Source: Alphaproteobacteria bacterium (GTDB lineage Bacteria; Pseudomonadota; Alphaproteobacteria; Bin95). Taken from it: 64,000 bases of DNA. Location of the stretch: positions 416,001 through 480,000 of the forward strand of contig CBDBGH010000003.1 of NCBI GenBank assembly GCA_965205265.1, written 5' to 3'. Within the stretch, counting starts at the first letter, position 1. Every line of letters begins with the position of its first letter. The notes below the pieces were generated by a model, which saw nothing but the letters and a program-made list of their open reading frames with translations, was not told where the DNA came from and searched no databases. Below are positions 5,129-26,247 of this stretch, piece after piece. Both the position numbers and the translations under genes were made by a program.

Positions 5129-5353
5129 ATGCTCGCCAAGCTGACCTCCAAGAACCAGTTGACCCTGCCCAAGGCCGTCACCGCCGCCGTGGACGCCGCC
5201 GAATATTTCGATGTGACCGCCGAGAACGGGCGCATCGTGCTGACTCCGGTCCGCGTCAACCGCGCCGACGGCGTGCGCGCAAAGCTTGCCGAACTCGGGC
5301 TCTCGGAAGCCGACATAGCCGACGCGGTTGCCTGGGCCCGATCCGGGAAATGA
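5129..5353 (+). CDS. AbrB/MazE-family antitoxin
   Basis: MLAKLTSKNQLTLPK swapped-hairpin motif; stop overlaps the toxin ATG (ATGA). Confidence 0.88.
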   Translation: MLAKLTSKNQLTLPKAVTAAVDAAEYFDVTAENGRIVLTPVRVNRADGVRAKLAELGLSEADIADAVAWARSGK

Positions 5354-5384
5354 CGCCGGTTCGCCCGGTTCTCGACACAAACGT
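5350..5384 (+). pseudogene. 5' fragment of PIN-domain toxin (MTPVRPVLDTNV), interrupted by island
   Basis: VLDTNV PIN motif then stop at 5394; continues in frame at ~25831. Confidence 0.85.
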
Positions 5385-5526
5385 ATTTTGTTGAATCCTA
5401 CCGATATAACCTGTTGTATTGAAACAGAACTTTATTTTCATTGCCTTATCCGTAAGCGATCCGGAAGCGGATTGGATTGAATGTCTGCGCAGTCCGGCGC
5501 GGCGCTGTCGGCAGAAACAGCGGGTA

Positions 5527-6686
5527 ATACCAGCGGCTGAGGTTTGAGACTCATTGGGGGATTCCCAAGGAGAGGTGCTTCTGACTCAATGCCGGTTCTG
5601 CGATTGGAGGGTCGGTATGAGGGCAGGGGTCCGATTGAGGGACGATTTCGATGCGGCGCAGTTGCGCGGCCTGGCGCAGCGGAGCCGGGACAGCGCGCAG
5701 ACCCGTCGCCTGCTTGCGCTTGCGGTGATTTACGACGGTGATCGTCGTTCGGACGCGGCGCGCTTTGCGGGCGTGGGCTTGCAGATCATCCGGGACTGGG
5801 TTCTTCGCTTCAATGCGGACGGGCCGGCGGGCTTGAAGGACCGCAAGGCGTCGGGTCCGCCGCGCAAGCTGAGTGCGGAGCAACGCGCGGCGCTTGTGGA
5901 GAGCGGTCCGGATCCGGCGATCCACGGCGTGGTGCGCTGGCGGCGCTGTGAGGTGGCGGCATGGCTCAAGGAGCAGTTCGGCGTCTCCTTGGCGGAGACG
6001 ACGGTCGGGCGGGAGTTGCGCCGGATGGGCTATGCCAAGCTCTCCGCGCGCCCGCGCCACTATGCCCAGGACGAGGCCGCGCTGGCAGCGTTCAAAAAAA
6101 GTTCCCGGACCGCCTGAGGGAGATACGCGCCAGGCTGGACGACGGCGTCGAGGTCGAAATCTGGTGGCAGGACGAAGCCCGCGTCGGCCAGAAGAACAAG
6201 ATCACCCGGCGCTGGGCGAAACGCGGCACAAGACCGTCAGCGCCCAAGGACCAGAGAACGACCTCCGCCTATATCTTCGGCGCCATCTGTCCCAACAAGG
6301 GCAAGGCCGCCGGCCTCGTCATGCCCTACGCCAACACACACGCGCTCAACGCTCATCTCGCCGAAATCAGTCGCATCGTCGAACCCGACGCCCATGCCGT
6401 CGTCATGCTCGACCGGGCCGGATGGCATACCTCCTCCTCTCTCAAAGTGCCCGGCAATATCTCGCTCATGCCGCTCCCACCCCGGGCGCCCGAACTCAAC
6501 CCGGTCGAGAACGTCTGGCAGTTCATGCGCGACAACTGGCTCTCCAACCGCGTCTTCAAAAGCTACGACGACATCCTCGATCACTGCTGCCACGCCTGGA
6601 ACAATCTTGTCTCACAACCGGCGCGCATTGCCTCCATCGGAACCCGAAAATGGGCCGATGGGTTCTAAACTATGCCCGCTGGTATA
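5527..6686 (+). mobile_element. IS630-family insertion sequence
   Basis: TACCAGCGG/CCGCTGGTA terminal inverted repeats with TA at ends. Confidence 0.85.
5617..6668 (+). CDS. IS630 transposase (two ORFs joined by -1 frameshift)
   Basis: HTH ORF to 6117; AAAAAAAG slippery site 6094-6101; DDE ORF with WQDEAR, LDRAGWH, PELNPVENVW. Confidence 0.88.
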
Positions 6687-6769
6687 ACCCTTCGTATCCT
6701 GGGGGATGAGGAGACAGTTATCCGTCCCTTGGCATGTGCACACCCGTCCGAACGCGCCCGGATTCGATT

Positions 6770-7061
6770 CGACCGATTGAGGGTGCGCCGCCAATCTTTT
6801 CGGAGGGATCGGAGCCAGATGTCCTTTTTCGGCTGGGCTCGTTTGGTATGCCGGTCGTATCGCCCGCGCCCCCTGGGTGGCGCCGACGCGGGTTCAGCCC
6901 GACGCCTTGTGGACGGTGCCGGTGTAGCGCGGGGTCTCGACGAAGGTCTCGATGAGCACGGGGGTGATGTTGTAGCGCGCGGTCCAGCCCTCTGGCAGGC
7001 GTCGGCGCACGATGGCGAGGATGTGCGAGCCGAGGTTCGGGATCCGGACCCAAGGCAGGAT
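6770..7061 (-). pseudogene. DUF4338 (DruA-like) protein C-terminal remnant
   Basis: Manual translation ILPWVRIPNLGSHIL...LIETFVETPRYTGT..ASG*TRVGATQGRGRYD; nonsense codon at 6894-6896. Confidence 0.65.
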
Positions 7062-7088
7062 TCGAACCTGCGACCTTCAGGTTATGAG
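7054..7088 (-). other. tRNA-Met(CAT) 3'-half fragment, probable att remnant
   Basis: CTCATAACCTGAAGGTCGCAGGTTCGAATCCTGCC (anticodon loop to T-arm); no 5' half or acceptor end. Confidence 0.8.
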
Positions 7089-7277
7089 TTTGGTCCCGTT
7101 CTGCGTCTCTCACAAGCTGACGTAAGCTGAAGGATGACAAACGCCTTGTTGGCAGGCATTTCCGGGTTCCCATCATACGCATGCGCCGCCTGAGGTAAGC
7201 TGCGATACGATGCAAAATGTTTGCCAATAGTTTGCCAGTCTGCTAGAACATCCTTCCGGCGTCAAGGATCTTCGGCC

Positions 7278-8588
7278 ATGGCAAACCGCATCCCCAAACT
7301 CACCAAGCGCGCCGTCGAGGCCCTCAGGGCCAACGGCGCCGACACCGTCCACTGGGACGGCGAACTGACCGGCTTCGGTATCCGGGTCCGCAAGTCGGGC
7401 CGGAAGAACTATGTCCTCCAGACACGGGTGCGCGGCAGGCTACGCTGGTTCACCATCGGCCAGCACGGGCGCGTCACCCTGGACGAGGCCAGGGCGGCGG
7501 CGCTGGAGATCCTGGCCCAGACGAAACAGGGCATCGATCCGCGCGAGGCGGAGGCGAAGCGGAAAGCCGAGCCGGTCATGACCGATCTCGGCAGGCGCTT
7601 CCTCGAAGAGTATGTCCGCACCCACTGCAAGCCCAGCACCCAGGGGGAGTACCGCCGGTCGGTGGAACTCTTCATCGACCCCGCGCTCGGCAGGATGAGG
7701 ATATCGGAGGTGGAGCGCAAGGACATCGCCAGGCTGCATTTCGACCTGCGCGACAAGCCCTACCAGGCGAACCGCACGCTGGGCGTGCTCTCGAAGATGT
7801 TCTCGCTCGCCGAGGTCTGGGGATGGCGGCCGGACGGCTCCAATCCCTGCCGTCACGTCAAGCGCTACAAGGAGAACAAGCGCGAGCGGTTCCTCTCGGA
7901 GGCGGAGACCGAACGGCTGGGCGAGGTTCTCCGCGAGGCCGAGGGCGAGATGCCCTCGGCGGTCGCCGCCTTCCGCCTGCTGCTGCTGACCGGCTGCCGG
8001 CTTTCGGAGATCCAGTTCCTGCGCTGGGAGCATGTCAGGGACGACTGCATCGAGCTGCCCGACGCCAAGACCGGCGGGCGGGTGGTGCCGCTCGGACCCG
8101 AGGCCCGCGCCGTGCTGGCGACCCTGCCCCGCGAGGACGGCAACCACTGGGTCATCGCCGGCAAGCTGCCGGACTCCCACATCACCGACCTGCAGAAGCC
8201 CTGGCGGCGCATCCGCGAGCGCGCCGGGCTGGAGGATGTGCGCATCCACGACTTGCGCCACAGCTTCGCCTCGCGCGCCCTGGCGCTGGGCGAGAGCCTG
8301 ACGATGATCGGGAAGCTGCTCGGCCATACGCAGGTGCAGACCACCGCGCGCTACGCGCATCTGGCGCGGGACTCGATCCGGAACGCCGCGGCCCGGATCA
8401 CCGGGAGCATCGGCGGCAATCTGTCCGGAGAGACGCCGGTATTCCGGCCGGCCGCCGCGCCCGAAACGGACCCAGGCGGAGACAGCATCGGGAAGACCGG
8501 CAGCACCGTTTCCGGGCACAGCGCTTCGCCGCCGGCAATCCGGCCGGCCGGCGGCGTCGAGGGAACCGTTCCCGGTCGAACGGAATAG
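7278..8588 (+). CDS. Tyrosine integrase with N-terminal arm-binding domain
   Basis: WDGELTGFGIRV, TGCRLSE, HDLRHS, LGH and TTARYAH motifs. Confidence 0.93.
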   Translation: MANRIPKLTKRAVEALRANGADTVHWDGELTGFGIRVRKSGRKNYVLQTRVRGRLRWFTIGQHGRVTLDEARAAALEILAQTKQGIDPREAEAKRKAEPVMTDLGRRFLEEYVRTHCKPSTQGEYRRSVELFIDPALGRMRISEVERKDIARLHFDLRDKPYQANRTLGVLSKMFSLAEVWGWRPDGSNPCRHVKRYKENKRERFLSEAETERLGEVLREAEGEMPSAVAAFRLLLLTGCRLSEIQFLRWEHVRDDCIELPDAKTGGRVVPLGPEARAVLATLPREDGNHWVIAGKLPDSHITDLQKPWRRIRERAGLEDVRIHDLRHSFASRALALGESLTMIGKLLGHTQVQTTARYAHLARDSIRNAAARITGSIGGNLSGETPVFRPAAAPETDPGGDSIGKTGSTVSGHSASPPAIRPAGGVEGTVPGRTE

Positions 8589-8666
8589 CCGGTCGGCGTA
8601 GGGTGTGGTCATGATGATCGCCGTTCCTGTCCCGGATCGCAGGCGGGCTGCCCGGGGTCCCGCCCG

Positions 8667-9644
8667 GTGAGCCTTCCCGCGACGCCGCACGACGCGCTGT
8701 TCCGGGCGCTGGTCTCCGACCCCGCCCGCGCCGGCGCGCTGCTCGCGGACTACCTGCCGCGGGAGGTCGCCGACCTGCTCGATCCCGACTCCCCGCCGGA
8801 GGCGGTGGAGGGCAGCTTCGTCGATGAGGACGCCGCAAGAACCCAGTGCGACGCCCTCTTCAGGGTCAGGCTCAAGACCGGCGAGGATGCCTTCATATTC
8901 GCGCTCCTGGAGCACAAGAGCTACATCGACGCCGCCACGCCGCTTCAGATCCTGAAATACCTCGCCAGCATCTGGCTCCGCGAGATCGAGGGCGGCGGCG
9001 CCAGGGACAGGCTGCCGGCGATCGTCCCGCTTGTCTTCTACCACGGCCCGGGCACGTGGACCGTGCCGCGCTCGGTGGCGGCGATGATCGACGCGCCCGA
9101 GGAACTGGAGCCGTTCGCCCGGGAGTTCGCCTATGTGCTGCACGACCTGGGCCGGATCGAGCCGCTGCACCTGTCGCGGACGCCGGAGGTCAGGGCCGGC
9201 TTGCTGGCGCTCCGGGTGGTCCATGCCGCGGACATTCCGGCCGACCTTCTCGACCTGATGACCGGCGGACCGATTGACGGGAGCGCGTTCGAGCGGCACA
9301 TTGTGCGCTACATCGCCGAGCGCATGAACCTGACGCCCGTGATGCTGGAGGCGTCGCTGCGCCGGACGAAGCCGGACCGATGGGAGGCGCTGATGGGAAC
9401 CGTCGCCGAAGCCTGGATCGAACAGGGCCGGAGCGAAGGACGGGCGGAAGGACGGGCGGAAGGACGCACCGAGGGCCAGGCCGGGGTCGTTCTGCGCCAG
9501 CTGGAGCTGCGCTTCGGGACTGTGCCCGAGGCGGTGCGCGAGCGGGTTCGCGGCGCGTCGGCCTCCGAACTGGAAGCCTGGGCCGAGGCGGTGCTGACGG
9601 CGGCGAGCCTCGACGAAGCGATGGCCGTCCCGCCCAGCCGCTAA
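8667..9644 (+). CDS. Rpn family recombination-promoting nuclease/putative transposase
   Basis: PHDALFR, DALF..LEHKS, PLVFYHG motifs; EGRA repeats in C-terminal tail. Confidence 0.9.
   Translation: MSLPATPHDALFRALVSDPARAGALLADYLPREVADLLDPDSPPEAVEGSFVDEDAARTQCDALFRVRLKTGEDAFIFALLEHKSYIDAATPLQILKYLASIWLREIEGGGARDRLPAIVPLVFYHGPGTWTVPRSVAAMIDAPEELEPFAREFAYVLHDLGRIEPLHLSRTPEVRAGLLALRVVHAADIPADLLDLMTGGPIDGSAFERHIVRYIAERMNLTPVMLEASLRRTKPDRWEALMGTVAEAWIEQGRSEGRAEGRAEGRTEGQAGVVLRQLELRFGTVPEAVRERVRGASASELEAWAEAVLTAASLDEAMAVPPSR
9393..9644 (+). CDS. Putative internal small Rpn antitoxin (RpnS-like)
   Basis: In-frame ATG preceded by GGAGG (9383-9387); MGTVAEAWIEQG. Confidence 0.55.
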   Translation: MGTVAEAWIEQGRSEGRAEGRAEGRTEGQAGVVLRQLELRFGTVPEAVRERVRGASASELEAWAEAVLTAASLDEAMAVPPSR

Positions 9645-10234
9645 GCCCGCCGGAACAGGACATCGACAGAAAACCGGTCTGGCGCCGGACGGGGTCGCTT
9701 GCCCCCCATGGATCCCGATGAAGGCACGATCGTCGGGGAAACGATGCCGGTCCTTCCCGCCCGCCCCCACGCCGCCGTCGATCACGCGACCGGCAGTCCG
9801 AAAAGGCGAGGTCGTCTCACCTGCCGACGATCGGCAAACCCCCGGTCACACGCAGGTGCAGAGGAACGTGCGCCATGCTCACCTTGAGCGGGATCCGGTG
9901 AAGGTTGCCGCCGCGAGGACCGCGGACAGCCTCGCAGCCGACAGGAATACCCCGCCGGACATTTCCATCGCAGCCTGATCCACGCGGCGCCGACGCGGAC
10001 CGTCAGGACGCCGCATTCCCCAGGCGCCGGCGCACGCGTCCGGTCTCGTCTTCCCTTGCCATCCCGAGCCGACCTTCCGGGTCCCGCGTGCCGCGCCGCC
10101 GGCCTACCGCCGTCTCCATGTCCGCGCCTCGCGCCACCGGGAGGAGAGCCTGGCCGTGAGTGGGGCGGCGGTCGGGGGTCCGGGAGAGGGCGTCCGGCCG
10201 CTGTTTCCCCCCACGGCATGATGGAGACGGCACC

Positions 10235-10558
10235 ATGACGGCAGCCATGGCATTCCCCCGCAACACGGCGAACACCTTCCTGACGCATTTCTTCGGCAGC
10301 GGGCTTTCCGACGACCGCTACGCCGTGGAGCGCTTCCGCGCGATGGTGGACGGCGACATTCGCCGCTGCCCGGACCCGGCGCCCGGCAAGGGCCGGCGCA
10401 AGGCGGGCCATGCCACCGCGACCCTGAAGGCGGTGAAGGAGATGCGCCCCGAGCGCAACGAGATCATCGTCTGCACCGGCCTCGGCAGCCGGGGCGGGGT
10501 CCAGTACTGGGGCGTCTACGCCATGGGGCTCGGTATCGACCGCCGCCAGAAGGGCTGA
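10235..10558 (+). CDS. Hypothetical protein
   Basis: GGAGA RBS, GC3-biased codons. Confidence 0.55.
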   Translation: MTAAMAFPRNTANTFLTHFFGSGLSDDRYAVERFRAMVDGDIRRCPDPAPGKGRRKAGHATATLKAVKEMRPERNEIIVCTGLGSRGGVQYWGVYAMGLGIDRRQKG

Positions 10559-10666
10559 CCACCCGCTTCCCGGACGTCCTGCCGGCCCGGCGTCCCCGGC
10601 TCGGGGGCCGGGCCAGGCGGCGGGGCGTCCGCCTTTCCCCTTGTCCCACGAACCGAGGAGGACGGC

Positions 10667-11038
10667 ATGGCCCATGTCGATCCGGAGACCCGCCGTGCGC
10701 GCGACCGCGCAAGCGTCGCCCGGCGCACCGCCAAACGGATCAAGGCCGGCCTGTGCACGAGATGCAGCAGGACCGGGCCTGAGCCGGAGCGCCGCCTGTG
10801 CGCGCCCTGCAACGAGAAACGGAACCGCGCGAGCCGGGCGCGGGACGCCCGCCTGCGGGCCGGCAGGAAGCCCCGGCGCGACCCCGAACGGGCACGGCGC
10901 CAAGGACGCGAGCGCGACCGCAGGCTGTATGCCGAGCGCGCGGCTGCCGGCATCTGCACCAAGTGCAGCCGCTCCGGCTCGGCCTTGATGACATCAGTCA
11001 CCTTGTCGCCGGACGCCCGGACCAGCTTGCGGGCGTAG
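10667..11038 (+). CDS. Arg-rich CxxC-repeat hypothetical protein, 3' end probably replaced
   Basis: GAGGAGG RBS; CTRC, CAPC, CTKC; after ~10970 runs into antisense of a RecD2 remnant. Confidence 0.55.
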   Translation: MAHVDPETRRARDRASVARRTAKRIKAGLCTRCSRTGPEPERRLCAPCNEKRNRASRARDARLRAGRKPRRDPERARRQGRERDRRLYAERAAAGICTKCSRSGSALMTSVTLSPDARTSLRA

Positions 11039-11257
11039 ACCATGCCGATGCCCCGGATCGTCCCTGAGCCGCATACTCCTCGATCCCGTCGACCGAGGAA
11101 GGCGCGGCGGTGCGGATGAAGTGCGCACGGAACTGCTAGCCGTGGGCGCGGTCGTTCACCCATTCGCCTGACGCGGTGATCGATTCTCCCGGCGACACTG
11201 CCGCGGCGTGGCCGACCATGGTCACCAAGTCTCAATGGCCTCGCGCCCCGACCCGCA
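10968..11257 (-). pseudogene. RecD2-like helicase N-terminal remnant
   Basis: VGHAAAVSPGESITASGEWVNDRAHG* and GSGTIRGIGMVYARKLVRASGDKVTDVIKAEPERL in shifted frames. Confidence 0.65.
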
Positions 11258-12710
11258 GGTCGTGCCCCCAGGCGTGGTGTAGGAGCAGGAGCCACCATCG
11301 GTAGCTGTGGGTAAGTGGCCCGCCGCCGCGACCGTGTGGAGTGTGGCGGCGGCGGGCCACTTATCCATAGCGGATGGCCATCGCGGTGCCGGTTAGGGTT
11401 GGGCTTCTACAGTCCATCCGACCGGAGGAGTACCACGATGACCACCAAGGACATGATGACCCTGCAGGCGCTTTTGGAGAAGAGTTCGGACGCCGATCTG
11501 CTTCGCGAGATGATCGGGTTCACGGCCGAGCGTTTGATGGCGCTTGAGGTGGAGGGCCTTGCGGGAGCCGCACACGGCGAGCGTTCGCCGGACCGGCTCA
11601 CCCATCGCAACGGCTACCGGGACCGGGTCTGGGAGACGCGCGCGGGCACGGTGGAGTTGAAGATCCCGAAGCTGCGCAAGGGGAGCTGCTTCCCGGGCTT
11701 CCTGGAGCCGCGTCGCATGGCGGAGAAGGCGCTGACGGCGGTGATCCAGGAGGCCTACATCAAGGGCGTGTCGACCCGCTCGGTGGACGACCTGGTGCAG
11801 GCCATGGGCATGTCGGGCATCTCGAAGAGCCAGGTGTCGCGGCTGTGCGGTGAGATCGACGGCAAGATCCGCGACTTCCTCGACCGCCCGCTGGAGGGTG
11901 ACTGGCCGTATCTGTGGCTGGACGCGACCTATGTGAAGATGCGCGAGGCCGGGCGCGTCGTCTCGGTCGCGGTCACGATCGCGGTGGCGGTCAACGACCA
12001 GGGCCGCCGCGAGGTGCTCGGCATGGCGGTCGGCGCGTCCGAGGCCGAGACCTTCTGGACCTCCTTCCTGCGCTCCCTGGCCCGCCGCGGCCTGCGCGGC
12101 GTCAAGCTGGTCGTCTCCGATGACCACAAGGGCCTGAAGGCGGCTGCAACGCGCGTCCTCGGCGCCACATGGCAGCGCTGCCGCGTCCACTTCATGCGCA
12201 CCCTGCTCGCCCATGCCGGCAAGCAGGGCCGGCGCGTCGTGTCCGCCTTCGTCACCACCGCCTTCGCCCAGGAGGATGCAGACAGCGCCTCCGCCCAGTG
12301 GCGCCAGGTCGCCGACCAGCTCAGGACCAAGGCGCCGAAGCTCGCCGCTCTCATGGACGAGGCCGAGCACGACGTTCTCGCCTACATGACCTTCCCGGCC
12401 GCGCATCGCCCCAAGCTGCACTCGACAAACCCGCTCGAACGACTCCATGGCGAGATCAAGCGGCGCACCAACACCGTCGGCATCTTCCCCAACGAGAACG
12501 CCATCACACGCCTGATCGGCGCCATCCTGCTCGAGCAGAACGACGAATGGGCCGTCCAGAGGGCCAGATACATGACGCTGGAATCGATCGCTCCCGTGAG
12601 CGACAATGCAACCGTCAAGCTGCCCGCCGTGGCAGCCTGAGCCTACCGGCCCTTCCCGCCGGATACCGCGACGGCCGCCAGGCTCTTACACCACGGCTCG
12701 GGACACGATC
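11258..12710 (+). mobile_element. IS256-family insertion sequence
   Basis: Imperfect IRs GGTCGTGCCCCCAGGCGTGGTGTA and TACACCACGGCTCGGGACACGATC; no TSD seen. Confidence 0.85.
11438..12640 (+). CDS. IS256 transposase
   Basis: [33 protein letters not shown] motifs. Confidence 0.95.
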
Positions 12711-13375
12711 GCCGCTTGTCGCGCGCGAAGTGCCGTTCATGCGGTCGCCAACAACGGGACGGCCCGCTGGCCGGATCGACCTTGTTGTGTCCGCCGACGA
12801 CGCTGCATCGGTCTGGTACGGGCTGGAAATCCAAGCTGTCTACTTCTCCGGCCCGGCCATGCAGTCCGATTTCACGCGGTTGCTCGCGTCTACAGCAACC
12901 GTCCCGCCCGCACCTGCGGCAGTTCGTCGTCCCGACTGGCGTTCGTCGAGCGCAAAGCGCCTGATGCCGCAGTTACAGATCAAGGCTCCGACACTGCGAC
13001 GGTGGGGAACGAAACTCGCGGTGGCCGTCGATCTGCCGTTCTTCAACGCGATAGGCGGGCCGTCAGACAATCCCTCGCGCGACCTGGACGATGGCGACAT
13101 CGTTTGGCTGATCCTATAGCGCGACAATCTGGGTGAGAGCCGCGCGTCAATCAGGATGAGATTCCCCGGCGGCATCGGCGAGTTGATGATTGTCGCGCGG
13201 GGCGCGGATTGCAAGCGGTTTCGGATTTTGATTGTCGCGGCGCGACAAACAAGGTTTTCGGAGAGCGTTTTGATTGTCGCGGGGGGGCCGTCGGGTCGGA
13301 GAAGAGACGGCCCGCGGAGGCGATTCCCGCGGGCCGTGAGTGTTGTGGCCGCTGGGCCGATCTGGCGGCAGCGGT

Positions 13376-15723
<2,348 letters not shown>

Positions 15724-16061
15724 CTACTCGGAAAAACGTCACCGTTCGCCCAGCCGACCGACCCCGCCAGAAGGTCCAGGAAAAATTTTTTGAGGCGGCG
15801 GCCCGGAACTCCGGTCGGGCTACGCCCTCCCTCCGTTCCGGGCCGCCGCCTTCCCCCGTCTCATCCTGATTGTCGCCAGCGTCTCAAGCTGATTGTCGCG
15901 CCGCAGATCCCGCGCATAGACGACGATTCCCGGCTCGTGGCGCACCATTGGGAAGTGCTGTCGCTTGAGGCGTCCAGCGACAAGCTGCTGTCCGCTGAAA
16001 CCGTGCGGCGGCGCGAATTCGAGGAAGCGTTGCGTGCGAAGCTCGAACCGTTGGAGACAGG

Positions 16062-17012: not shown

Positions 17013-17558
17013 TCAACGCCCCGCCCGTCGCGCGGCCTCCTCGACCCATTCGCCGAGATCGTTCACCCGGTTTGACCAGTTGCCGGCCGGCTCCCAAGTG
17101 TAGGTCATGAAGCGCTCGCTGGCCTTCTGTGCGAGCACATACCCCATTGTGTTCCTGAAAGGCGGTATCTTGTGCTTATCCAGCGGGTTTGCTGGCCGGA
17201 GAATTGCATCAAGAACCGGGCCGGGAACTGCGCTCTGATGGTCCTTCGACTTGCGCAATTTGTGGACGTAAACGCCGAGAAGGCCCATGCCGTTGGCGAT
17301 GGATTCCTTGATCTCGAAGTTGACCCATCTGCTCCGGTGGGTGGCAGCGCCGATCAGAACGCACGTGACCGAGCACCCGTGCATCTGCTTTCGGATCCAG
17401 TTCCTAATGGCGGCGTCACCGGTTCGCCTGACTTTCTCGTACTCCGCCTTGTCCCGGAAGCCCGAGCGCGGCTCGCCGATGAATCTGCCCGAGTTGCGGA
17501 CCTGGTTGACGCGCCATACGTCGTCGTAGTCGAAACTGAAGAAAACGATTCTGGTCAT
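17013..17558 (-). CDS. TIR-domain protein (Thoeris ThsB/DUF1863-like)
   Basis: VFFSFDY..WRVNQVRN, IRNWI, VLIG..T..SRWV.FEI with catalytic Glu. Confidence 0.85.
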   Translation of the reverse strand: MTRIVFFSFDYDDVWRVNQVRNSGRFIGEPRSGFRDKAEYEKVRRTGDAAIRNWIRKQMHGCSVTCVLIGAATHRSRWVNFEIKESIANGMGLLGVYVHKLRKSKDHQSAVPGPVLDAILRPANPLDKHKIPPFRNTMGYVLAQKASERFMTYTWEPAGNWSNRVNDLGEWVEEAARRAGR

Positions 17559-17568
17559 CGGTGCAGCC

Positions 17569-17761
17569 CTATCCAGATCTGAGAATCGGCGCATGCGGCG
17601 CCTGTAGTAAGGCTGCGGGGCCGCACTCGCTGCCGAGGGCCGCCACCGCGACCAGGACGAGAGCGAGCAAGGCTCCGTAGAAGAATACCAGGGTACGGGA
17701 GAACGTCGCGCCTCGCCAGCTATGGCGCAGGGATCCCCGGTACGCGCGGACATCCATGGAA
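17569..17761 (-). pseudogene. C-terminal TM remnant of gene upstream of TIR, truncated by IS21
   Basis: SMDVRAY..W...FSRTLVFFYGALLALVLV begins right at the IS end. Confidence 0.55.
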
Positions 17762-19318
17762 TGCGCGTTTCAGTAAGTCCCGGCCGGTGATTACGGAAAG
17801 TCCCGGCCGGCGATTTCAGTAAGTCCCGGCCGGCGATTCCGGAAAGTCCCGGCCGGCATGACCGGGGCGATTTGAGTTCGGCTTTCGGGTGCGCCGACTC
17901 GGCGTCTACCCCCTGGCATTTTGCCGGGGGGTGGCATGCCGGGACGGAAGCAGACGAGACGAACGACAGTGAAGGACGTCAGGGCGATCCTGCGGCTGAG
18001 CCATGGGCAGGGTCTGTCGGAGCGCGAGGTCGCGGGGCGGCTGAAGCTCTCCAGGGCGACGGTGTCGACCTATCTTCTTCGGGCCCGGGAGGCGGGCCTG
18101 TCGAGCTGGCCGCTGCCGGCGGTCTACGAGGACGACGCGGTGCTGGAACAGTTGCTGTTCCGGCGCATGGGCCGCCCGCCGCGGGATACGCGCCAGCCGC
18201 ACTGGCCGACGGTGGCGGCCGAGCTGAAGCGCAAGGGCGTGACGCTGAGCCTGCTGTGGCAGGAATACCGGGCCGCGCATCCGGACGGCTACGGCTATAC
18301 CTGGTTCTGCGACGCCTTCAGGGCCTTCGAGCGCCGCACGCATGCGAGCTGGCGCAACCGGCACGAGGCCGGCGCGGTGATGCAGACCGACTATGCCGGC
18401 CAGACGGTCGAGATCGTCGATCCCGAGACCGGCGAGATCCACGAGGCGCAGATCTTCGTCGCGGTGCTCGGCGCCTCGTCCTACACCTTCGCGACCGCGA
18501 GCCTGACGCAGCGCCTGCCGGACTGGATCGCTGGGCAATGCGAAGCGCTGGCCTTCTTTGGGGGCGTGCCGAAAAGCATTGTCTGCGACAACCTGAAGGC
18601 GGGGGTGGCGAAGCCGCTCTGGTTCGAGCCGACGCTGAACGCGACCTTCGCGGCGCTGGCGGAGCACTACGACACCACCGTCCTGCCGACGCGGCCCCGA
18701 AAACCCCGGGACAAGGCGAAGGTCGAGGTTGGCGTGCAAGTGGTCGAGCGCTGGATCCTGGCCCGCCTCAGGAACCGGCGCTTCTTCTCCCTCGGGCAGC
18801 TCAACGCGGCGATCCGCGTCCTCCTGGACGAACTCAACGACCGGCCCATGCGCCATCTCGGCCAGAGCCGGCGCCAGATGTTCGAGGCCATCGAGCGCGC
18901 CGCGCTGGCGCCGCTGCCGAAGACCCCCTTCGAATACGCCGAGTGGAAGACCGCGAAGGTCCACCCCGACTACCATGTCGATGTCGAGCGCACCTTCTAC
19001 TCGGTCCCTCACAGCCTGATCGGGCGCACGGTTCGGATCCGCCTCACCCGGCGCACGGTCGAGGTCTTCCATAGCCACAGGCGCGTCGCCGCCCATGCAC
19101 GCCGGTCTCCCTATGGCGGGCATGTCACCGTTGCCGCTCATATGCCCAGCGCGCATCGCCGCTATGCCGATCGCACCCCGGCAAGCCTGATCGGCAGGGC
19201 AAGACGCATCGGCCCCAACACGGCCGTGCTGGTCGAGCGCATGATGCGCGACAGGCCGCATCCCGAGCAGGGCTATCGAAGCGCCATGGGCGTCATATCG
19301 CTCTCCCGGCGATACGAG
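17762..19318 (+). mobile_element. IS21-family element, partial (istB missing)
   Basis: TG end with four AAGTCCCGGCCGG repeats (17774-17856), then istA. Confidence 0.85.
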
Positions 19319-19327: not shown

Positions 19328-20132
19328 TTATCATAAAGGGCGCATATTTGCTGGCGTAGCGCGCTTTTGTGGTGCGCACGACAAACAGCGTGAGACAGGC
19401 GCGGCCGGGTTTATGACGGGGGCCGAGGACGGAAGGAGGGCGTAGCCCGACCGGAGTCCTCGGCCCCCGTCGCGTTGAGATTTTCGCCTCCCGGAGGGCG
19501 GCGACGTCCTGGCGACCGGGTTGGCCGTTCCCGGGCTGCGGCAGGGGGTAGACTGGGGCTTCTGAGAACGATGCGGCGCCGGCCCCGTTGGCTTGGTGGC
19601 AACGACCGGCGCCGCACCCCCCGAGCCATGCAAGGCGCGGCCCGGAAGCGCAGTATCGTGCGCGTCCGGGCGTGGGTCCACCCCGTTCTCATCGGTCGCG
19701 ATGAGGAACGCCGCCCGCCTGTTCACCTGCGCCCTGTGCCGCCGCCAGGTGGTTCTCTGCCGGCGCTGCGACTCTGGCCATATCTACTGTTCGCCGCGTT
19801 GCAGCGGGCGGGCGCGGCGTCGGTCGGTGCGCCTTGCGGGGCAGCGCTACCAGAACAGCCGCCGGGGCCGTCACAAGCATGCCGAGCGCCAGCGGCGCTA
19901 CCGCGAACGGCGCCGTGTGCGGCAGCCGGCAGTTCGGGCCATCGCGCAGAAAGTGACGCATCACCCTTTGACCGTCGCGCGCCGGCGTCCTGATGTGGCG
20001 CGCATACCGGCGGGGCGGTCCGGAACCCGGCCCTTCGGGCCCGACCGTCCCGCCCGGGTGTTCCGCTGCGAGCGCTGCGGTCGGTTCTGCGGCCTGGCGG
20101 TCTATCCGGGCCTGCGCCAGGCGCGAAGGGCC
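19319..20132 (+). mobile_element. Left-end fragment of a third IS21-like element
   Basis: TGTC end, leader hairpin shared with the IS21 at 15794-15850, Cys-rich accessory ORF. Confidence 0.6.
19701..20132 (+). CDS. Cys-rich Arg-rich accessory ORF (truncated/fused)
   Basis: ARLFTCALCRRQVVLCRRCDSGHIYCSPRC...RYQNSRRGRHKHAERQRRY. Confidence 0.55.
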
Positions 20133-21140
20133 GGCCATGACGGCGTGGCTGGCCACGGTGTGGCGCAGGTCGTGCAGGCGGAGCCTGCCGAGGCCGGCGT
20201 CGGCGCAGACGGTGCGCCAGCACAATACCAGGCTGTCGGCCCTTCTTCCTTCGGCGTATCGCGGAAACACGAAATCGCTCGGTTCCCGCGCACCGGGCAG
20301 GGTCTCGATCAGCGCCCGCGCGGCCTCGCCGAGCGGCACGGCGCGGGGGCCGGTCTTGGCATCCTCAAGGTTCAGGGCCCTGGCTCCGACGTTCCGCCAG
20401 CGCAGGTTGAGGACCTCGCCCCGGCGGCATCCGGTGAGGGCCAGCAGGCGGATGGCGGCGACGGCCTCGGGCCAGCGGCCTTCGTGCGCATCGAGCGCGC
20501 GCCCGAGCCGGGCGAGCTCTCCGGTGTCGAGGAAGCGGGCGACGTTGCGCCTCGGGTTCTTCGCGATGCCGAGGCAGGGGTTGGAGCTGCGCTCGCGCAA
20601 TCCCCACTCCTCGGCGCGGAACATCATGGCGCGGAGGATCTCGAAGGCGCGGTTGGCCGCGCCGGGCCTGTCCCTGCTCGCGGCGTCGAACCACGCGGCC
20701 ACGTCCTGCGCGTCGATGCGGTCGAGCGGCATCCTGCCGAAGACGGGCAGGATGCGGGCCTTGAGATAGATGCGCACGGTCCTGCGCCCGGAGGGCTTCC
20801 AGTGCGGTTCCGAGCGCCGCAGGTATTCCCCGGCGAACTGGCGGAAGCTCGGGGTCTCCTTCTCCCTGCGGATGTCGTCGGCGGGGTTGCCGCCCGCGCG
20901 GATGCGGGCGAGCATGTCGCGGGCGCGGCGGCGGGCCTCGACGAGGTCCATCTCGCCGTGGCGGGCGACGACGATGCGGCGGCTCCGTCCCTCGATGCGG
21001 GCCTGCACGATCCAGACCTTGCGGCCCGAGGGGTGGATGCGCAGCCCGAAGCCGGGCAGCGACCTGTCGAACAGGATCGTGTCCTTCGGGCCGGGTGCGG
21101 CGTCGCGGGCCAGCTTCGCGGTAAGGTCAACCCTTGGCAT
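20133..21140 (-). pseudogene. Tyrosine integrase, truncated after HDLRH (lacks LGH and catalytic Tyr)
   Basis: FDRSLPGFGLRI, TGCRRGE, HDLRHT, then junction. Confidence 0.85.
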
Positions 21141-22317
21141 GACCGCACCCTCCCTCATGCTCCGCGCCGCTACCGGCCAGGGCCGCATGGATGCGGTTCG
21201 ACACCCGGTCGGCGGCGTCCGTGACCGACTGGTCGGACAGATGGACATAGCGCTCTGTGGTCTCGACCAGGGCGTGACCGAGCAGCTTCGCGATGGTCAC
21301 CATGTCCACCCCGTTCATGGCGGCGACCGAAGCCCAGCTGTGTCTGAGATCGTGCAGCCGCAGGCCGGGCAGTTCGGCCTCGCTGCGGATGCGGTGCCAC
21401 TGGTACTCGATGTTGTCTACGTGCCGCGTCGGCGGACGCGCCGGAAAGAGATACGGGCAATCCGCGCTGTATCGCGGGATGGCGTTGATCACGATCCGCG
21501 CGGCACTGGACAGCCAGACCGTGCGCGGGCCGGACTTGGCATCGGGCAAGTGGATGCGCTTGCCCCTGATCCAGTCCCATTCGAGGGAGACAATCTCGCC
21601 GAAGCGGCATCCGGTGAGCATCAGCAGGCGGACGATGGCGACGACATGGGGACACCGGAACTCGTCGCGGGTGAGCACGGCGTTGAGCCGGGCCATCTCG
21701 TCCGCCGTGAGGAACCGCTCCTTCGGCTTCATCCTGTAGCGGCGGGTCCGCTTGCAGGGGTTGGTGTTGTGGGCGCGGTATCCCCAGAGTTCCGCCATGC
21801 GCATCATCACCGACAGCACGGGCATGGTCCGGTTGGCGACGCCGGGCCTGTTCGCCATGGAGGCGAACCAGCGCCTCACGTCGTCGGCCTCGATGGCGTC
21901 CACGGTCATGTGCCCGAAGGCGGGCAGGATGTCCTTGCGCACGATGCGGGCGTTGGTCTCCAGGGTCCTGGACTTCCAGTGCCGGGCATGGCGTTCGAGG
22001 AACTCCCCGGCGAAGGCGTCCATCGGGTGGCCGGGCATCTTCGGCCCGTTGTCCTTCCTCGTCGGCTCGATGAAGCTGGCGATGAGCCTGCGGGCCTCGC
22101 GCCGCGCCTCGGGGACGGTCATGGCGTCGGCGTCGCCGATCCGGGCGTAGCGTCTCTTCCCGCGCGCCATGCGGGCAAGGAAGAATGTGCGGGTTCCGGT
22201 GGGCTGGATCGAGACGGCGAGGCCGCTCACCACGTCGTCGCGGACTTCGTACTTCCCGGCTCGGGGTCTGGCGGCGCGGAGGCGCCGGGCGAAGGTGGAC
22301 TTCGGCTGGTCGTTCAT
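21127..22317 (-). CDS. Tyrosine integrase
   Basis: TGCRFGE, HDLRHS, LGH, TTERYVH; overlaps next integrase by 14 bp. Confidence 0.92.
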   Translation of the reverse strand: MNDQPKSTFARRLRAARPRAGKYEVRDDVVSGLAVSIQPTGTRTFFLARMARGKRRYARIGDADAMTVPEARREARRLIASFIEPTRKDNGPKMPGHPMDAFAGEFLERHARHWKSRTLETNARIVRKDILPAFGHMTVDAIEADDVRRWFASMANRPGVANRTMPVLSVMMRMAELWGYRAHNTNPCKRTRRYRMKPKERFLTADEMARLNAVLTRDEFRCPHVVAIVRLLMLTGCRFGEIVSLEWDWIRGKRIHLPDAKSGPRTVWLSSAARIVINAIPRYSADCPYLFPARPPTRHVDNIEYQWHRIRSEAELPGLRLHDLRHSWASVAAMNGVDMVTIAKLLGHALVETTERYVHLSDQSVTDAADRVSNRIHAALAGSGAEHEGGCGHAKG

Positions 22318-22741: not shown

Positions 22742-22926
22742 ATGGCCAACAGAACAAAGACCACGATGGCGGGCGCTCGCGCCTTCGCCGCTGCCGACGG
22801 GCGCGAGGCCGTGCTGTGGGACAGTATCGCGCCGGGGCTCGGACTGCGGGCGCGACCGAACGGACGCAAGACATGGATCGTGCATCGGCGCTGCAACGGC
22901 TCTGTCGTCAAGCGGACGCTCGGCAC
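22742..22926 (+). pseudogene. Integrase arm-binding N-terminal fragment cut by an IS21 end
   Basis: VLWDSIAPGLGLRARPNGRKTWIV. Confidence 0.75.
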
Positions 22927-22990
22927 TGCGGCGCGACAATCAGCTTGAGACGCTGGCGACAATCAGGATGAGACGGGGGAAGGCGGCGGC
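22927..22990 (+). mobile_element. Isolated IS21 left end, matching 15842-15905 (inverted)
   Basis: TGCGGCGCGACAATCAGCTTGAGACGCTGGCGACAATCAGGATGAGACGGGGGAAGGCGGCGGC. Confidence 0.85.
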
Positions 22991-23031
22991 GGTCGCCGCG
23001 GAGATGCGCGCCGCGCCGGCGCGGCCGGCGG

Positions 23032-24237
23032 TCATGGCGCGGGACACGGAGGATCGGTCTCGCCCGCCAGGTCGGCGCGGAGGCTCTCGGCGACGCGCGC
23101 CGCCGACGCCTTCACCGAATCGCGCGCGAGATGGGCGTAGCGCGCCGTGGTCTGCACCTTCCGATGGCCGAGCATCCGGCCGATCATCGGCAGGCTCTCG
23201 CCAAGCGCCAGAGCGCGCGAGGCAAAGCTGTGCCTGAGGTCATGGATGCGGACGTCCTTCAGGTCCGCGCGGACCCGCACCGCGAGCCAGGCGTTGTTGA
23301 GGTTGCTGAGCCGCGCGCCCGGCCTCGCTCCGGAAATCACCCAGGGATTGTCCGGCAGGCGCGGTATCCCGGCAAGCACGCGCCGCGCCGCCGGCGAGAA
23401 CGCGACCGAACGCGCGCCGGTCTTCGCGTCGCGCAACCTGATCTCGCCCGCCTCGAGGTCCACATCGGCCCAGCGCAGCGTCAGGACCTCGTTGCGCCGG
23501 CACCCGGTGAGCATCAGCAGGCGGAACGCCGCCACCGCGCTCGGATGCACCCTGCCCTCGGCCTCGACCGCGTCGAGCGTGCGCCCGAGGCGCCGGAACT
23601 CCTCATCGGAGAGGAAGCGCTCGCGGCTCTTCTCCCGATACTTGCGCACGAACCGGCACGGATTGCCGCCCTCCGACGTGATCCCCCACAGCTCGGCCAT
23701 GCGGAAGAGGCGCGAGAGCATGTCCAGGACCCTGTTCGCCATCGCCGGCGTCTCGTGCAGGCTGTAGTGCAGCGCCGCGACGCGTTCGCGGCCGATCTCC
23801 CCGAGGCGCACCGGGCCGAGCGCGGGCAGCAGGTGCCTGTCCAGGACATGCCGGCAATGGCGCACCGTGGTCGGCTTGCAGCGCACCTTGACGTGCTCCG
23901 TCATGCAGCGCTCCGCCACCTCCGCGACCGTGGGGCCGGCGTCCGCCGGGGCCGCACCGCCGTCGGGCGCCGGCTCCCTGCCGGCCTTGAGGTCGGCGAT
24001 GATGCGCGCCGCCTTCGTCCGCGCCCGGTCCGCCGTCATCAGCCCGTGACGCCCGACGGTCAGCCGGCGCGACCTGCCGCCCGCCCGCGTCTGCACGAGG
24101 TAGACCTTCGAACCGCTCGGATACACGCGGACCCCGAAGCCCTGAAGCTTCGAATCCCAGTGGACCGTCTCGCGCTCACCCACCGGCAGCGCCTCCACGG
24201 TCCGGCGCGAGATCCGCTGTGCGTTCAGCTTCGTCAT
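23032..24237 (-). CDS. Tyrosine integrase
   Basis: WDSKLQGFGVRV, TGCRRNE, HDLRHS, LGH, TTARYAH. Confidence 0.93.
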   Translation of the reverse strand: MTKLNAQRISRRTVEALPVGERETVHWDSKLQGFGVRVYPSGSKVYLVQTRAGGRSRRLTVGRHGLMTADRARTKAARIIADLKAGREPAPDGGAAPADAGPTVAEVAERCMTEHVKVRCKPTTVRHCRHVLDRHLLPALGPVRLGEIGRERVAALHYSLHETPAMANRVLDMLSRLFRMAELWGITSEGGNPCRFVRKYREKSRERFLSDEEFRRLGRTLDAVEAEGRVHPSAVAAFRLLMLTGCRRNEVLTLRWADVDLEAGEIRLRDAKTGARSVAFSPAARRVLAGIPRLPDNPWVISGARPGARLSNLNNAWLAVRVRADLKDVRIHDLRHSFASRALALGESLPMIGRMLGHRKVQTTARYAHLARDSVKASAARVAESLRADLAGETDPPCPAP

Positions 24238-24274
24238 CGTCCGCTCCCGGCTGTCCCCGTGTCCGTCGCGCCCG

Positions 24275-25459
24275 TCACGGATCCGTCCGCTCCGTGAGGA
24301 TGTCGGCGCCGATGCTGTCGGCGACCCTCGCCGTCGACGCCTGCACCGACTCCCGCGCAAGGTGCGCGTAGCGGGCCGTGGTGTCGATCTTCCGGTGACC
24401 GAGCAGTTCGCCGATCATGCTCAGGCTCTCGCCGAGCGCGAGCGCCCTGCTGGCGAAGCTGTGGCGCAGGTCGTGAAGGCGGACGCCGTCGAGGTCCGCG
24501 TGCCTGCGGATGCGGTCCCAGGCATCGTTGATGTTGGTCTGGTGAGTACCCTTCTTCCGCCCCGGGAACACCCATGGATTGCCGGCGACGCGCGGCAGTG
24601 CCGCCAACACCGCGGCCGCCGCGGGCGGCATCGGCACGATGCGCGCGCCGGTCTTGCTGTCGGCGAACCGCATCTCGCCCGCCTCGAAGTCGAGGTCGTC
24701 CCAGGCCAGCCCCATGATCTCGTTGCGCCGGCACCCGGTCAGCACCAGCAACCGGATCGCCGCCGCCGAGTGACGGGAGGCGAGACGCTTCGCGGGGGCA
24801 ATGTCGAGCGTGCGTCCGAGCCGTGCGAGTTCCCCGGACGTCAGGAACCGCTCCTTCCGGGGGGCCACCTTGTAGCGGGGCACCGACCGGCAGGGGTTGC
24901 GCCCCGGCGGACGCATCTCCCAGAGTTCCGCCATGTTGAACATCTTCACCAGGATGTCGACGCACCGGTTCGCCACCGTCGGCATGCCGCTCAGACCGAA
25001 CTGGAACGCGAGGATGTCCTTGCGCGCCACCTGCGACACGGGATGCGCTCCCAGGCCCGGCACGATGTGCTTCTTCAGCATCAGGCCGTAGTGCCTGATC
25101 GTATTCGGCTTGCAGTGCATGGCGACGTATTCGCGCTCGTAGCGCTCGGCCAGATCGGCCACGGTCGGCGCGGGTTCGGTCTCCGGCTCGACAGGCGGCA
25201 ATCCGGCCTTGATGCGCGCAAGCAGCTTCGCCGCCTCCCTGCGCGCCTCGGCGGGCGCGATGTCCCCGTGCCGGCCCACGGTCGCGCGGACCGACCTGCC
25301 CTTCGCACGGGCCTGCGCCACATAGACCTTGCGCCCCGTGGGGTAGACGCGAATCCCGAACCCCGGCAGTTCGCTGTCCCAGAACACGCCGTCCTTTCCG
25401 TTGACCGCGAGACGGTCCACGATACGCTTGGTAAGCGTTCGGTGCTGGCGTTCGGGCAT
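24275..25459 (-). CDS. Tyrosine integrase adjacent to right att
   Basis: WDSELPGFGIRV, TGCRRNE, HDLRHS, LGH, TTARYAH. Confidence 0.93.
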   Translation of the reverse strand: MPERQHRTLTKRIVDRLAVNGKDGVFWDSELPGFGIRVYPTGRKVYVAQARAKGRSVRATVGRHGDIAPAEARREAAKLLARIKAGLPPVEPETEPAPTVADLAERYEREYVAMHCKPNTIRHYGLMLKKHIVPGLGAHPVSQVARKDILAFQFGLSGMPTVANRCVDILVKMFNMAELWEMRPPGRNPCRSVPRYKVAPRKERFLTSGELARLGRTLDIAPAKRLASRHSAAAIRLLVLTGCRRNEIMGLAWDDLDFEAGEMRFADSKTGARIVPMPPAAAAVLAALPRVAGNPWVFPGRKKGTHQTNINDAWDRIRRHADLDGVRLHDLRHSFASRALALGESLSMIGELLGHRKIDTTARYAHLARESVQASTARVADSIGADILTERTDP

Positions 25460-25815
25460 GTCCTCGTTCCTCCACCGGGGCGCGAAAGCGTTCGTTCAAG
25501 GTGTGACGATGATGAGGACGACGAGGCCAATTCCGTGGTTTGCCGGGCTTCGCCCGACTTCGCTCTGTGCCATCGTCCCCTCCATCAACGCATGACCGAA
25601 CGCTTTCCCGGGGCGCTGGAAGCCGGTTCGGGCTCGGACGCAGGTCACGTAAGCGGACCGAAAGCGACCGGCTGGAAATCGGGGCGCATTGAAGCGCATC
25701 CGGGGCAGGGATGCAAGGACGGAGATGGGCGATCAGACACACAAATATAGAGAATTGACAATGGTTTATATCAGAAGAGCGCATCCGGGCGCATGCGAGG
25801 CAAGGTAGACAAAAA

Positions 25816-26247
25816 TTGAGTTGTCTTTTCGACACGAACGTCCTGCTGTCGGCGCTGCTGTTCCATTCCGGCGCACTTTCGTGGCTGCGCGCCGCCTGGC
25901 GCTCCGGCGACATCCGCCCGCTCGCCAGCCGGGAGACCGCGGCCGAACTCGTCCGTGTCCTCGCCTATCCGAAATTCGGGTTGGACGCCGAGGAGCGGCG
26001 CGACCTGCTCGACGACTATCTTCCCTTCTGCGAGACGGTCCCCGTGCCGGATCCGCCGCCGGCGGTTCCCGAATGCCGCGACCCTTCCGACCGCCCGTTC
26101 CTGGAACTGGCGCTGGTCGGGCGTGCCGACGCGCTGGTGACCGGCGACGCCGACCTCCTGGCGCTCGCGGGCGCGTTTCCCGTGCCCCTATTGCTGCCCG
26201 CCGGCTTCGGGCGGAGACTGTCCCGCGGCGAAGAAGCGGAGCGGTAG
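25816..26247 (+). CDS. PIN-domain toxin, 3' part with island-supplied TTG start
   Basis: FDTNVLLSALL...CRDPSDRPFLELA..ADALVTGDADLL. Confidence 0.85.
   Translation: MSCLFDTNVLLSALLFHSGALSWLRAAWRSGDIRPLASRETAAELVRVLAYPKFGLDAEERRDLLDDYLPFCETVPVPDPPPAVPECRDPSDRPFLELALVGRADALVTGDADLLALAGAFPVPLLLPAGFGRRLSRGEEAER

Follow-up and report, generated by a model that had tools for sequence, protein, structure and literature searches.

A decayed genomic island, probably inserted by its own integrase, within the active-site codons of a PIN toxin gene

The stretch of DNA analyzed here, referred to as the window, comprises 64,000 nucleotides of an Alphaproteobacteria bacterium (genome G000; GenBank assembly GCA_965205265.1, contig CBDBGH010000003.1, positions 416,001 to 480,000). 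In it, the gene for a PIN-domain toxin, part of a toxin-antitoxin (TA) operon, is divided into two parts. The DNA between the two parts is very probably a degraded integrative genomic island that entered the Asp-Thr-Asn (DTN) codons of the PIN gene by tyrosine-recombinase site-specific recombination. It is established that the insertion is real and precise, that unrelated PIN genes were entered repeatedly at the same codon, that such junctions are limited to one clade of integrases and that an open reading frame (ORF) is regenerated beside the integrase. The coordinates of all features are listed in Table 1.

The left part of the toxin gene is a short stub, in which codons 1 to 9-10 are those of the host and the remaining N-V-F-C-stop is supplied by the element. 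The right part resumes at 25831 with DTNVLLSALL..., encodes a PIN_3 domain (Pfam E 1e-19) and ends with a stop codon at 26245-26247. TCGACAC is found at both junctions (5372-5378 and 25829-25835), followed by A or G and then by AACGT. The resulting 13-mer, TCGACACRAACGT, is present in the window at the two junctions only. By itself, this repeat is statistically unremarkable, with 2 matches compared to 2.16 expected at up to 2 mismatches. No third copy was found in the window, even with 2 mismatches, and, therefore, nothing points to tandem accretion here. The pair of genes is predicted to function as a type II TA system, as indicated by the PIN_3 match (1e-19), a match to TIGR00305 above its cut-off, the ATGA overlap with the antitoxin gene and an operon that is intact in relatives. 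An earlier note on this DNA had called the antitoxin AbrB. The AbrB assignment is sub-threshold, as the protein scored 18.3 bits against Pfam MazE_antitoxin (E 0.0022; cut-off 24.7) and 19.8 bits against TIGR01439 AbrB (E 4.7e-4; cut-off 28.3).

Empty sites were sought by using the 3' part of the PIN gene as the query against 61 genomes, namely G000 and 60 related genomes. Close orthologues were found in three congeners (G009, G012 and G015), in each case as one uninterrupted gene beginning MTPV/ARPVLDTNVL, with the antitoxin gene kept upstream. The G009 gene reads MTPVRPVLDTNVLLSALLFHSG across the target site. The G009 locus matches window positions 3879-5378 (91%), 25826-26255 (93%) and 26433-26967 (91%), and its two central matches overlap by 10 bases at the core. 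In G009 the antitoxin-PIN operon is intact and its neighbors are syntenic on both sides; the gene is also intact in G012 and G015. Because the G009 locus is continuous at this point, the ~20,450 bases between the cores are extra in this genome. The insertion of that length in the PIN gene is real and precise. The earlier note had placed the junction cores at 5372 and 25829 and the PIN halves 20.5 kb apart, and both sequences were found there.

A second copy of the element is present in the same genome. Window positions 22979-25838, which contain the tandem integrase genes, named IntB and IntA, and the right arm of the element, recur at 99% at G000:C3:3281433-3284291. The right end of this copy stops three bases past the core and enters a different PIN gene (P0003, DTNVASQLMRP...; Pfam PIN 1.8e-14). 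The element sequence of the left junction recurs on the opposite strand at G000:C3:3215101-3215146, where the left arm is preceded by a ribbon-helix-helix-type antitoxin, identified by eye, and the stub MFVLDTNVFC-stop. This second vapC gene is intact in G009, G014 and G015, which carry an MFVLDTNVAS... operon with MFVLDTNVASELMRP. Congeners lack the element, and empty-site alleles, which the earlier note had proposed to look for in relatives, are now known for two sites. The window PIN and the PIN of the second copy are only 17% identical. Since the same integrase module and arms are found at both sites, the same element entered two dissimilar PIN genes at one codon. The sequence common to the two copies is limited to 5371-5527, 6685-7057 and 22979-25838, and the rest consists of insertion sequences (ISs) and unshared material.

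The same pattern was seen in a second genome, G061. Four 99%-identical copies of IntA adjoin four different PIN genes there, and there are five left arms, each preceded by an antitoxin gene, the type of which varies, and by a PIN stub ending in ...DTNVFC. Taking the two genomes together, elements with the 99%-identical integrase adjoin six different PIN genes, whose mutual identity is 14-32%, and the distance from the integrase to the D codon is a constant 371 nt in 6 copies. One G061 copy is collinear with the window copy over C17:128068 to 162894 (34.8 kb); it is itself filled with ISs and lacks the equivalent of window 7057-10025. In fuller copies of the element, the far end codes for a DruA-like protein; a single-stranded DNA-binding protein (SSB), a SLOG-domain protein and, beside IntB, an S24 (LexA/CI-like) protein are also encoded. 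The full DruA-like ORF of G061 (L121:1143-1913, minus strand) matches PF14236 (Druantia DruA) with an E of 1.3e-32. The S24 gene has been lost from the window copy. Another genome, G062, has two copies whose IntA is 82% identical and which have a 2.49-kb integrase module and a 3.1-kb segment in common; no far ends of these copies were found within the contig stretches examined.

The bases on either side of the core were used to locate the crossover. In the seven far-side junctions (two in G000 and five in G061), the base before TCGA is C, A or T, depending on the host, and the six integrase-side junctions of the 99% group all have the T of the element there. The base after GACAC is always the A of the element on the far side and a host C or G on the integrase side. 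Because the flanking bases switch between host and element type on opposite sides, strand exchange is confined to TCGACAC, which fits the 7-bp crossover core put forward in the earlier note. Lambda-type integrases typically have an overlap of seven bases, a length also given in PMC10111431. TCGACAC is the probable overlap region. One far-side junction (L117) and one integrase-side junction (L061) of G061 both carry GAT in place of GAC, and this can be a mismatch in the overlap region, if the two are halves of one gene.

In the proposed mechanism, the attachment site (attB) would be the DNA for the start of the PIN active site, namely a hydrophobic residue followed by Asp-Thr-Asn-Val, and strands would be exchanged within the 7 bases TCGACAC. 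Many paralogous toxin genes would be usable as landing sites, because the DTN codons are the best-conserved DNA of PIN/VapC genes. According to a crude census with a hidden Markov model built from our alignment, this genome has at least 21 PIN-like genes, a rough count. Of these, two are occupied and at least four vacant ones have a perfect TCGACAC at the right codons. Independent insertions were observed at two sites in G000, at nine junctions in G061 and at 20 of the 26 close loci in the survey described below.

To extend the comparison, 56 loci were surveyed, using one genome per species. A junction was scored when a hydrophobic residue followed by D-[T/P/S]-x was met going outward from the integrase start, within 700 nt and in an open frame of at least 90 codons. 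This was the case for 20 of the 26 loci with at least 65% integrase identity and at least 600 nt of flank, compared to 1 of the 22 more distant loci. The sole distant locus flagged, L106, has its ORF 624 nt from a 34%-identical integrase. Flagged ORFs were then compared with Pfam, leaving aside L106 and L085 (a near-duplicate of L079; L085 was kept in the alignment). PIN or PIN_3 was found in 20 of 22 junction ORFs, the 22 being made up of 2 from this genome and 20 from other loci, and the match always began at profile position 4-5. Four more junction loci were recognized by eye (L066, L084, which lies at the locus edge, L093 and L096). At L089, an apparent C-terminal remnant of PIN_3 lies beside a truncated integrase, also as judged by eye.

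A maximum-likelihood tree of 45 integrase rows placed every junction row within one 100/100 clade. The 24 rows of this PIN-targeting clade comprise 19 with a junction, 3 with too short a flank and 2 with none, while junctions are absent from all 21 rows beyond it. Its rows are labelled Pseudomonadota, Acidobacteriota, Binatota, Thermodesulfobacteriota and Myxococcota. Left off the tree were L062, with an interrupted integrase, L065 and L108, with a stop within the match, and L084, L089, L090, L093, L095, L096, L100, L107 and L111-L115, whose matches are partial or weak. The proposals of the earlier note that the island targets PIN/VapC genes and that homologues of the integrase would be found near split PIN genes are both supported, the former by the second vapC gene, the nine G061 junctions and the clade-wide association, and the latter by the contrast between close and distant loci in the survey and in the tree.

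IntB and its orthologues form the neighboring (sister) clade to IntA, and in 24 of the 25 loci of L060-L085 with downstream sequence, the gene directly after IntA is an IntB orthologue. Clustering of ORFs found nothing else downstream that is common to more than 3 of 23 loci and, therefore, the cargo varies. PIN-gene specificity would reside in the IntA clade, with IntA and its constant partner IntB acting as a conserved module and variable cargo lying between the arms. Against PF00589 (cut-off 27.1), IntA scored 91 bits and IntB 67.7 bits, and all five integrases of the window carry an arm-type DNA-binding domain. The catalytic motifs of tyrosine recombinases are R, HxxR, H/W and Y. Regular expressions matched TGCRRNE, HDLRHS and GH..TTARY (R, HxxR and H..Y) in both IntA and IntB; the Lys motif, for which a crude pattern was used, was matched in IntA only. 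IntA, with or without IntB, probably catalyzes integration.

Relatives of IntA are numerous. This genome alone has 58 matches to it, many of them as tandem pairs, with at least 12 tandem integrase pairs in total. In a search of protein clusters, 6029 proteins among the 8000 candidates scored had an E of 1e-60 or lower. The best 120 clusters are all at least 69% identical, and the few that are named are called only 'integrase' or 'recombinase'. The integrase of the island itself reached no NCBIfam equivalog cut-off. Plasmid and phage collections held no IntA relative at 60% identity or above, the best phage match being 36.5% identical, and a close-relative scan of viral_contigs found none.

The side of the element next to the integrase provides a new beginning for the toxin gene. 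In each subfamily, the D codon of the host is immediately preceded by an in-frame start and about four hydrophobic codons that come from the element (for example, TTG-S-C-L-F, M-S-F-L-L, M-F-L-L, GTG-Y-L-I, M-L-I-L, M-Y-L-I or M-F-T-F-L). Islands that integrate within genes and bring a replacement segment usually follow this logic. The chimeric ORF in the window matches PIN_3 from profile position 3 with an E of 5.6e-21 and 76.0 bits, compared to 71.9 bits for the host part alone, and scores 52.3 bits against TIGR00305, above the cut-off of 29.15. The chimeric ORF of the second copy matches PIN from profile position 2, with 56.8 bits compared to 54.8 bits for the host part alone. Judging by the reading frames, a full PIN ORF is regenerated beside the integrase on integration. 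The earlier note was correct that the toxin gene is split, but the element does more than disrupt it, since a full PIN ORF persists at 25816-26247. Integration would have two outcomes. The far-side junction would leave the antitoxin with a dead 14-codon stub, and the integrase-side junction would fuse the element's start and four hydrophobic codons to the remainder of the toxin. The regenerated PIN frame would then be uncoupled from the promoter of the antitoxin and from translational coupling to it. The chimeric toxin may be made.

Toxin-antitoxin genes are common island cargo, and a PIN ORF is invariably next to IntA, with constant spacing between them. The PIN genes beside the integrase could, therefore, be seen as cargo of the element, such as a stabilizing toxin, with the stubs resulting from recombination between PIN paralogues. 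This is very unlikely, since 99%-identical integrases adjoin six PIN genes with 14-32% identity, the antitoxin always precedes a stub at the far end of the element, and congeners have an uninterrupted operon in the same chromosomal context in two cases. Another possible explanation is that IS insertion or rearrangement split the gene by chance and that the 7-base repeat is no more than a consequence of conservation in the DTN codons. The 13-mer alone lacks significance, the interval contains at least four ISs and the genome has ~40 IS21 copies, all of which would fit a chance event. The same-base junction, however, is found in 2 PIN genes of this genome, at nine junctions in G061 and at ~20 other loci, the same arms are found at the junctions and no IS end lies at either junction, which leaves chance as an explanation that is hardly credible.

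A domesticated host switch, in which programmed excision re-forms the TA operon as the main function (regulated gene integrity), is also improbable, if less remotely so. Excision would indeed restore an intact operon like that of G009, and the S24 (LexA/CI-like) repressor gene beside IntB in fuller copies could link excision to stress. Yet the element shows the pattern expected of selfish mobile DNA, being multi-copy and occupying different PIN genes in different genomes, the labels of which cover five phyla. Congeners lack it, and the window copy lacks the S24 region. Under regulated gene integrity there would be no replacement segment, and here the start and the first strand are supplied by the element. 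A replacement 5' end on the attP side also differs from the classic gene-disrupting switches described in PMC10111431.

Several observations count against site-specific entry of an integrative island into PIN genes, or against parts of it. Two of the 22 junction ORFs in the survey are not PIN genes, namely L073, a Phd antitoxin fusion, and L081, a response regulator. Among the loci recognized by eye, the junction at L066 is followed by a decayed PIN, D-T codons at L093 are followed by a non-PIN sequence, and L096 has a short PIN-like frame; no junction was seen by eye in the clade members L076 and L083. The halves of the second vapC gene (3215101-3215146 and 3284243-3284291) are mutually inverted and 69 kb apart, and, therefore, the second copy has since been rearranged. 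In G061, far-side and integrase-side junctions are mostly on different contigs and rearrangement is common. The simple layout of attL, element and attR was observed in two cases only. These data suggest that large rearrangements occurred between element copies in G000 and G061. For the regenerated toxin, a search of the DNA preceding the chimeric ORF gave no sigma-70-like promoter, and neither junction has a consensus promoter or terminator. The start in the 99% subgroup is only a TTG with a weak and distant Shine-Dalgarno-like run, and subfamily L077 lacks any obvious start close by. With no consensus promoter and weak start signals, the regenerated toxin is a hypothetical product.

The evidence on present activity is also mixed. 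Both cores are intact and IntA and IntB have kept their catalytic motifs, so the window copy may still be able to excise, and the recombination switch suggested in the earlier note is a hypothesis. Its left arm is interrupted by an IS630-family element 149 bases from the core, and this may disable excision. Fourteen sequencing runs were found, all as assembled contigs, and four of them (X9, X10, X12 and X13) were compared to the G009 locus (L002) at 85% likeness. None of the contig pieces listed bridges the empty site, and no excision product or circular form was seen, with 1156 pieces beyond those listed and with rare variants being dropped from assembled contigs. Pieces in X10 and X12 end 7 to 22 letters from the L002 junction (~1910-1916), and one X9 piece departs from the reference.

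A wider interpretation that joins these results is possible, but we regard it as tentative and, taken as a whole, rather doubtful. It holds that the window copy belongs to a large, unnamed family of two-integrase islands, labelled with at least five phyla, which uses the active-site codons of PIN/VapC genes as its landing pad and rewires the TA module. The antitoxin would keep its promoter and lose its toxin, and the toxin would come under element control with a start and a first beta-strand provided by the element. In this way, the element would hijack a host toxin for its own stabilization or for neutralizing host defense. IntA and IntB would form a hetero-complex acting on the asymmetric core, and copies in different PIN paralogues would recombine with each other, giving rise to the inversions and scattered junctions in G000 and G061. 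The use of an active site as a landing pad could be likened to the way homing elements make use of conserved catalytic motifs.

A literature search returned no description of integrases targeting PIN or vapC genes, although published target catalogues may list such integrases. Integrases and islands specific for dusA were reportedly described by Farrugia et al. in 2015. The dusA integrases resemble those studied here in being tyrosine integrases that insert into the 5' end of a protein-coding gene and supply a replacement 5' end. In contrast, dusA is a single-copy housekeeping gene, whereas the target here is a motif of a multi-copy toxin family, and a conserved integrase pair is involved. The P4-type integrases of tRNA islands share the Arm-DNA-bind_3, SAM-like and catalytic domains, a short core within a conserved gene and a replacement segment in attP, but they target tRNA genes rather than a protein-coding toxin gene. 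The 'skin' element of sigK is a gene-splitting, excisable element and an example of regulated gene integrity. There, as here, an island splits a gene that precise excision would restore; unlike skin, the element described here is multi-copy, promiscuous among paralogues and regenerates an ORF on integration. Recombinase-in-trio elements and tripartite integrative and conjugative elements have several tandem tyrosine recombinase genes per element. Those systems have three recombinases, whereas two are found here, in sister clades and with arm-binding domains. Gene-splitting elements of the skin type are mentioned in PMC10111431. An integrase clade of helper-embedded phage-inducible chromosomal islands described in that source is similar in that the clade targets one class of genes and its core was located by comparing many instances. 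According to the same source, these islands are phage satellites that disrupt late genes of prophages without a replacement, in contrast to the replacement 5' end found here. The system described here differs from these in its motif-level target in a multi-copy toxin family, combined with a constant module of two integrases.

Integrases are usually described as specific for a single locus, such as a tRNA or a housekeeping gene, whereas the target here is a motif of a whole toxin family. Many bacteria carry dozens of PIN toxin genes, and a motif target would explain how at least 5 copies of an island can be present in one genome (G061) and why labels from five phyla are found. TA loci could serve in this way as landing pads for mobile DNA, which would offer a route by which they are split, shuffled or brought under the control of foreign DNA. 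For genome engineers, the integrase module may also be of interest, since it is compact and its target is short, predictable and naturally multi-copy.

Table 1. Features of the split toxin-antitoxin locus and of the DNA inserted in it (window positions)
Feature	Coordinates	Strand	Evidence or remarks
Antitoxin gene, AbrB/MazE-like, 74 aa	5129..5353	+	Stop overlaps the toxin ATG (5350) as ATGA
PIN toxin 5' stub, 14 codons	5350..5394	+	M-T-P-V-R-P-V-L-D-T-N-V-F-C-stop; stop 5392-5394
attL core TCGACAC (probable crossover region)	5372..5378	+	Bases to the left host-type and to the right element-type in 7 attL junctions
Element left arm, part 1	5379..5527	+	97% to G000:C3:3215154-3214998 and G061:C17:128068-128220
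IS630-family insertion within left arm	5527..6686	+	Helix-turn-helix ORF 5554-6117; DDE_3 ORF 5961-6668 (Pfam)
Element left arm, part 2; DruA-like (PF14236) gene remnant	6686..7057	-	97-98% to copy 2 and G061
Third tyrosine integrase	7221..8588	+	Phage_integrase 1.8e-21; Arm-DNA-bind_3 3.9e-15; separate clade on tree
Rpn/YhgA-like nuclease (Transposase_31)	8667..9644	+	Pfam 6.8e-42; NCBIfam RpnA-like matches below cut-off
Element backbone fragment	10025..10971		89% to G061:C17:129067-130020
IS256-family element, Mutator transposase ORF 11315-12640	11257..12714	+	Pfam 9.5e-119; 99% copies elsewhere in genome
IS21-family element, istB 13376-14215, putative istA 14212-15711	13113..15906	-	IstB_IS21 5e-65
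ThsB-like TIR-domain gene, possible cargo	17013..17753	-	Pfam ThsB_TIR 4.3e-22
IS with rve / Mu-transposase-C transposase, ORF 17921-19327	17762..19318	+	Pfam; three more copies at 99.7-99.9%
Second, divergent integrase pair	19689-21248 and 21127-22317	-	Pfam; long branches outside the IntA and IntB clades
Isolated IS21 end fragment	22926..22990		65-nt perfect inverted copy of 15842-15906; marks backbone truncation at ~22979
IntB, second integrase of tandem module	23032..24360	-	Phage_integrase 1.4e-18; Arm-DNA-bind_3 1.8e-11
IntA, att-proximal integrase	24275..25459	-	Phage_integrase 9.8e-26; Arm-DNA-bind_3 3.6e-10; SAM_3 3.5e-6
Element right arm, IntA start to core (369 nt)	25460..25828	+	98% in copy 2
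attR core TCGACAC	25829..25835	+	
Regenerated chimeric PIN ORF	25816..26247	+	TTG and four codons from element; D-T-N-V onward from host

The gene content of the interval was assessed from the G+C content at third codon positions and with Pfam. The window copy is a decayed, nested and IS-invaded wreck with at least four ISs, and the backbone left of ~22979 is lost. The 20-kb island of the earlier note, therefore, stands as an insertion but not as a single clean element, being a truncated copy instead. Since its entry, it has been invaded by the ISs and by other integrase genes. Beyond ~22979, copy 2 and three G061 copies share sequence and the window diverges from them, with an IS21 end in its place. 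The IS21-family element, which has ~40 genomic copies at 88-100% identity, appears to have truncated the island. The IS630 insertion is missing from the otherwise collinear left arms of the G061 C17 copy and copy 2. Because the left arm of the collinear G061 copy is uninterrupted, the IS630 in the window is a later insertion. An ORF at 6718-7227, which overlaps the DruA-like remnant, had no Pfam match. The third integrase is outside the shared backbone, as it lies in the region missing from the G061 C17 copy. No ThsA partner for the lone ThsB-like gene was found among the ORFs scanned.

Pfam detected no conjugation genes (relaxase, coupling protein or type IV secretion) among ~30 ORFs of the window and 10 of G061, the fuller copies having been scanned in part, and no virion genes (capsid, terminase etc.) among the scanned ORFs of the window and G061. 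The window contains no tRNA genes, and no Rfam families were found in 4900-26400. In the divergent integrase pair, the C-terminal H..Y motif of the integrase at 19689-21248 was not matched by the regular expression, and the gene ends within an 812-bp repeat. This repeat (19318-20130) is found in at least 16 genomic places at ~100%, holds the last 146 codons of that ORF and probably belongs to a larger repeated element that the neighboring IS has cut. The left end of that rve/Mu-type IS has four tandem 23-nt repeats (17768-17857), which are probably transposase binding sites.

Some minor observations were made on the DNA near the integrases and around the locus. A segment of ~125 nt upstream of IntA (25484-25608) is 81-96% conserved beside other integrase pairs, including those of other genera (G016 and G042). 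The segment lies between the two arms of a 28-nt inverted repeat (25471-25498 and 25593-25620), has no Rfam match and contains a possible short minus-strand ORF with a hydrophobic tail at its end. A related integrase pair at G000:C3:3800290-3802906 and 5434342-5436958 has 52-60% protein identity, and its right arm is 82% identical over 248 nt. The pair at 3800290-3802906 adjoins the 3' end of a Dam-like methylase gene (DPPY motif, by eye) rather than a PIN gene and sits in a 14.6-kb exact inverted duplication. Lastly, a palindromic repeat of ~100 nt is present at 3460-3561, 27332-27430, 61404-61486 and 63971-64000 of the window and also in the G009 locus, and it may be similar to repetitive extragenic palindromes or miniature inverted-repeat transposable elements.

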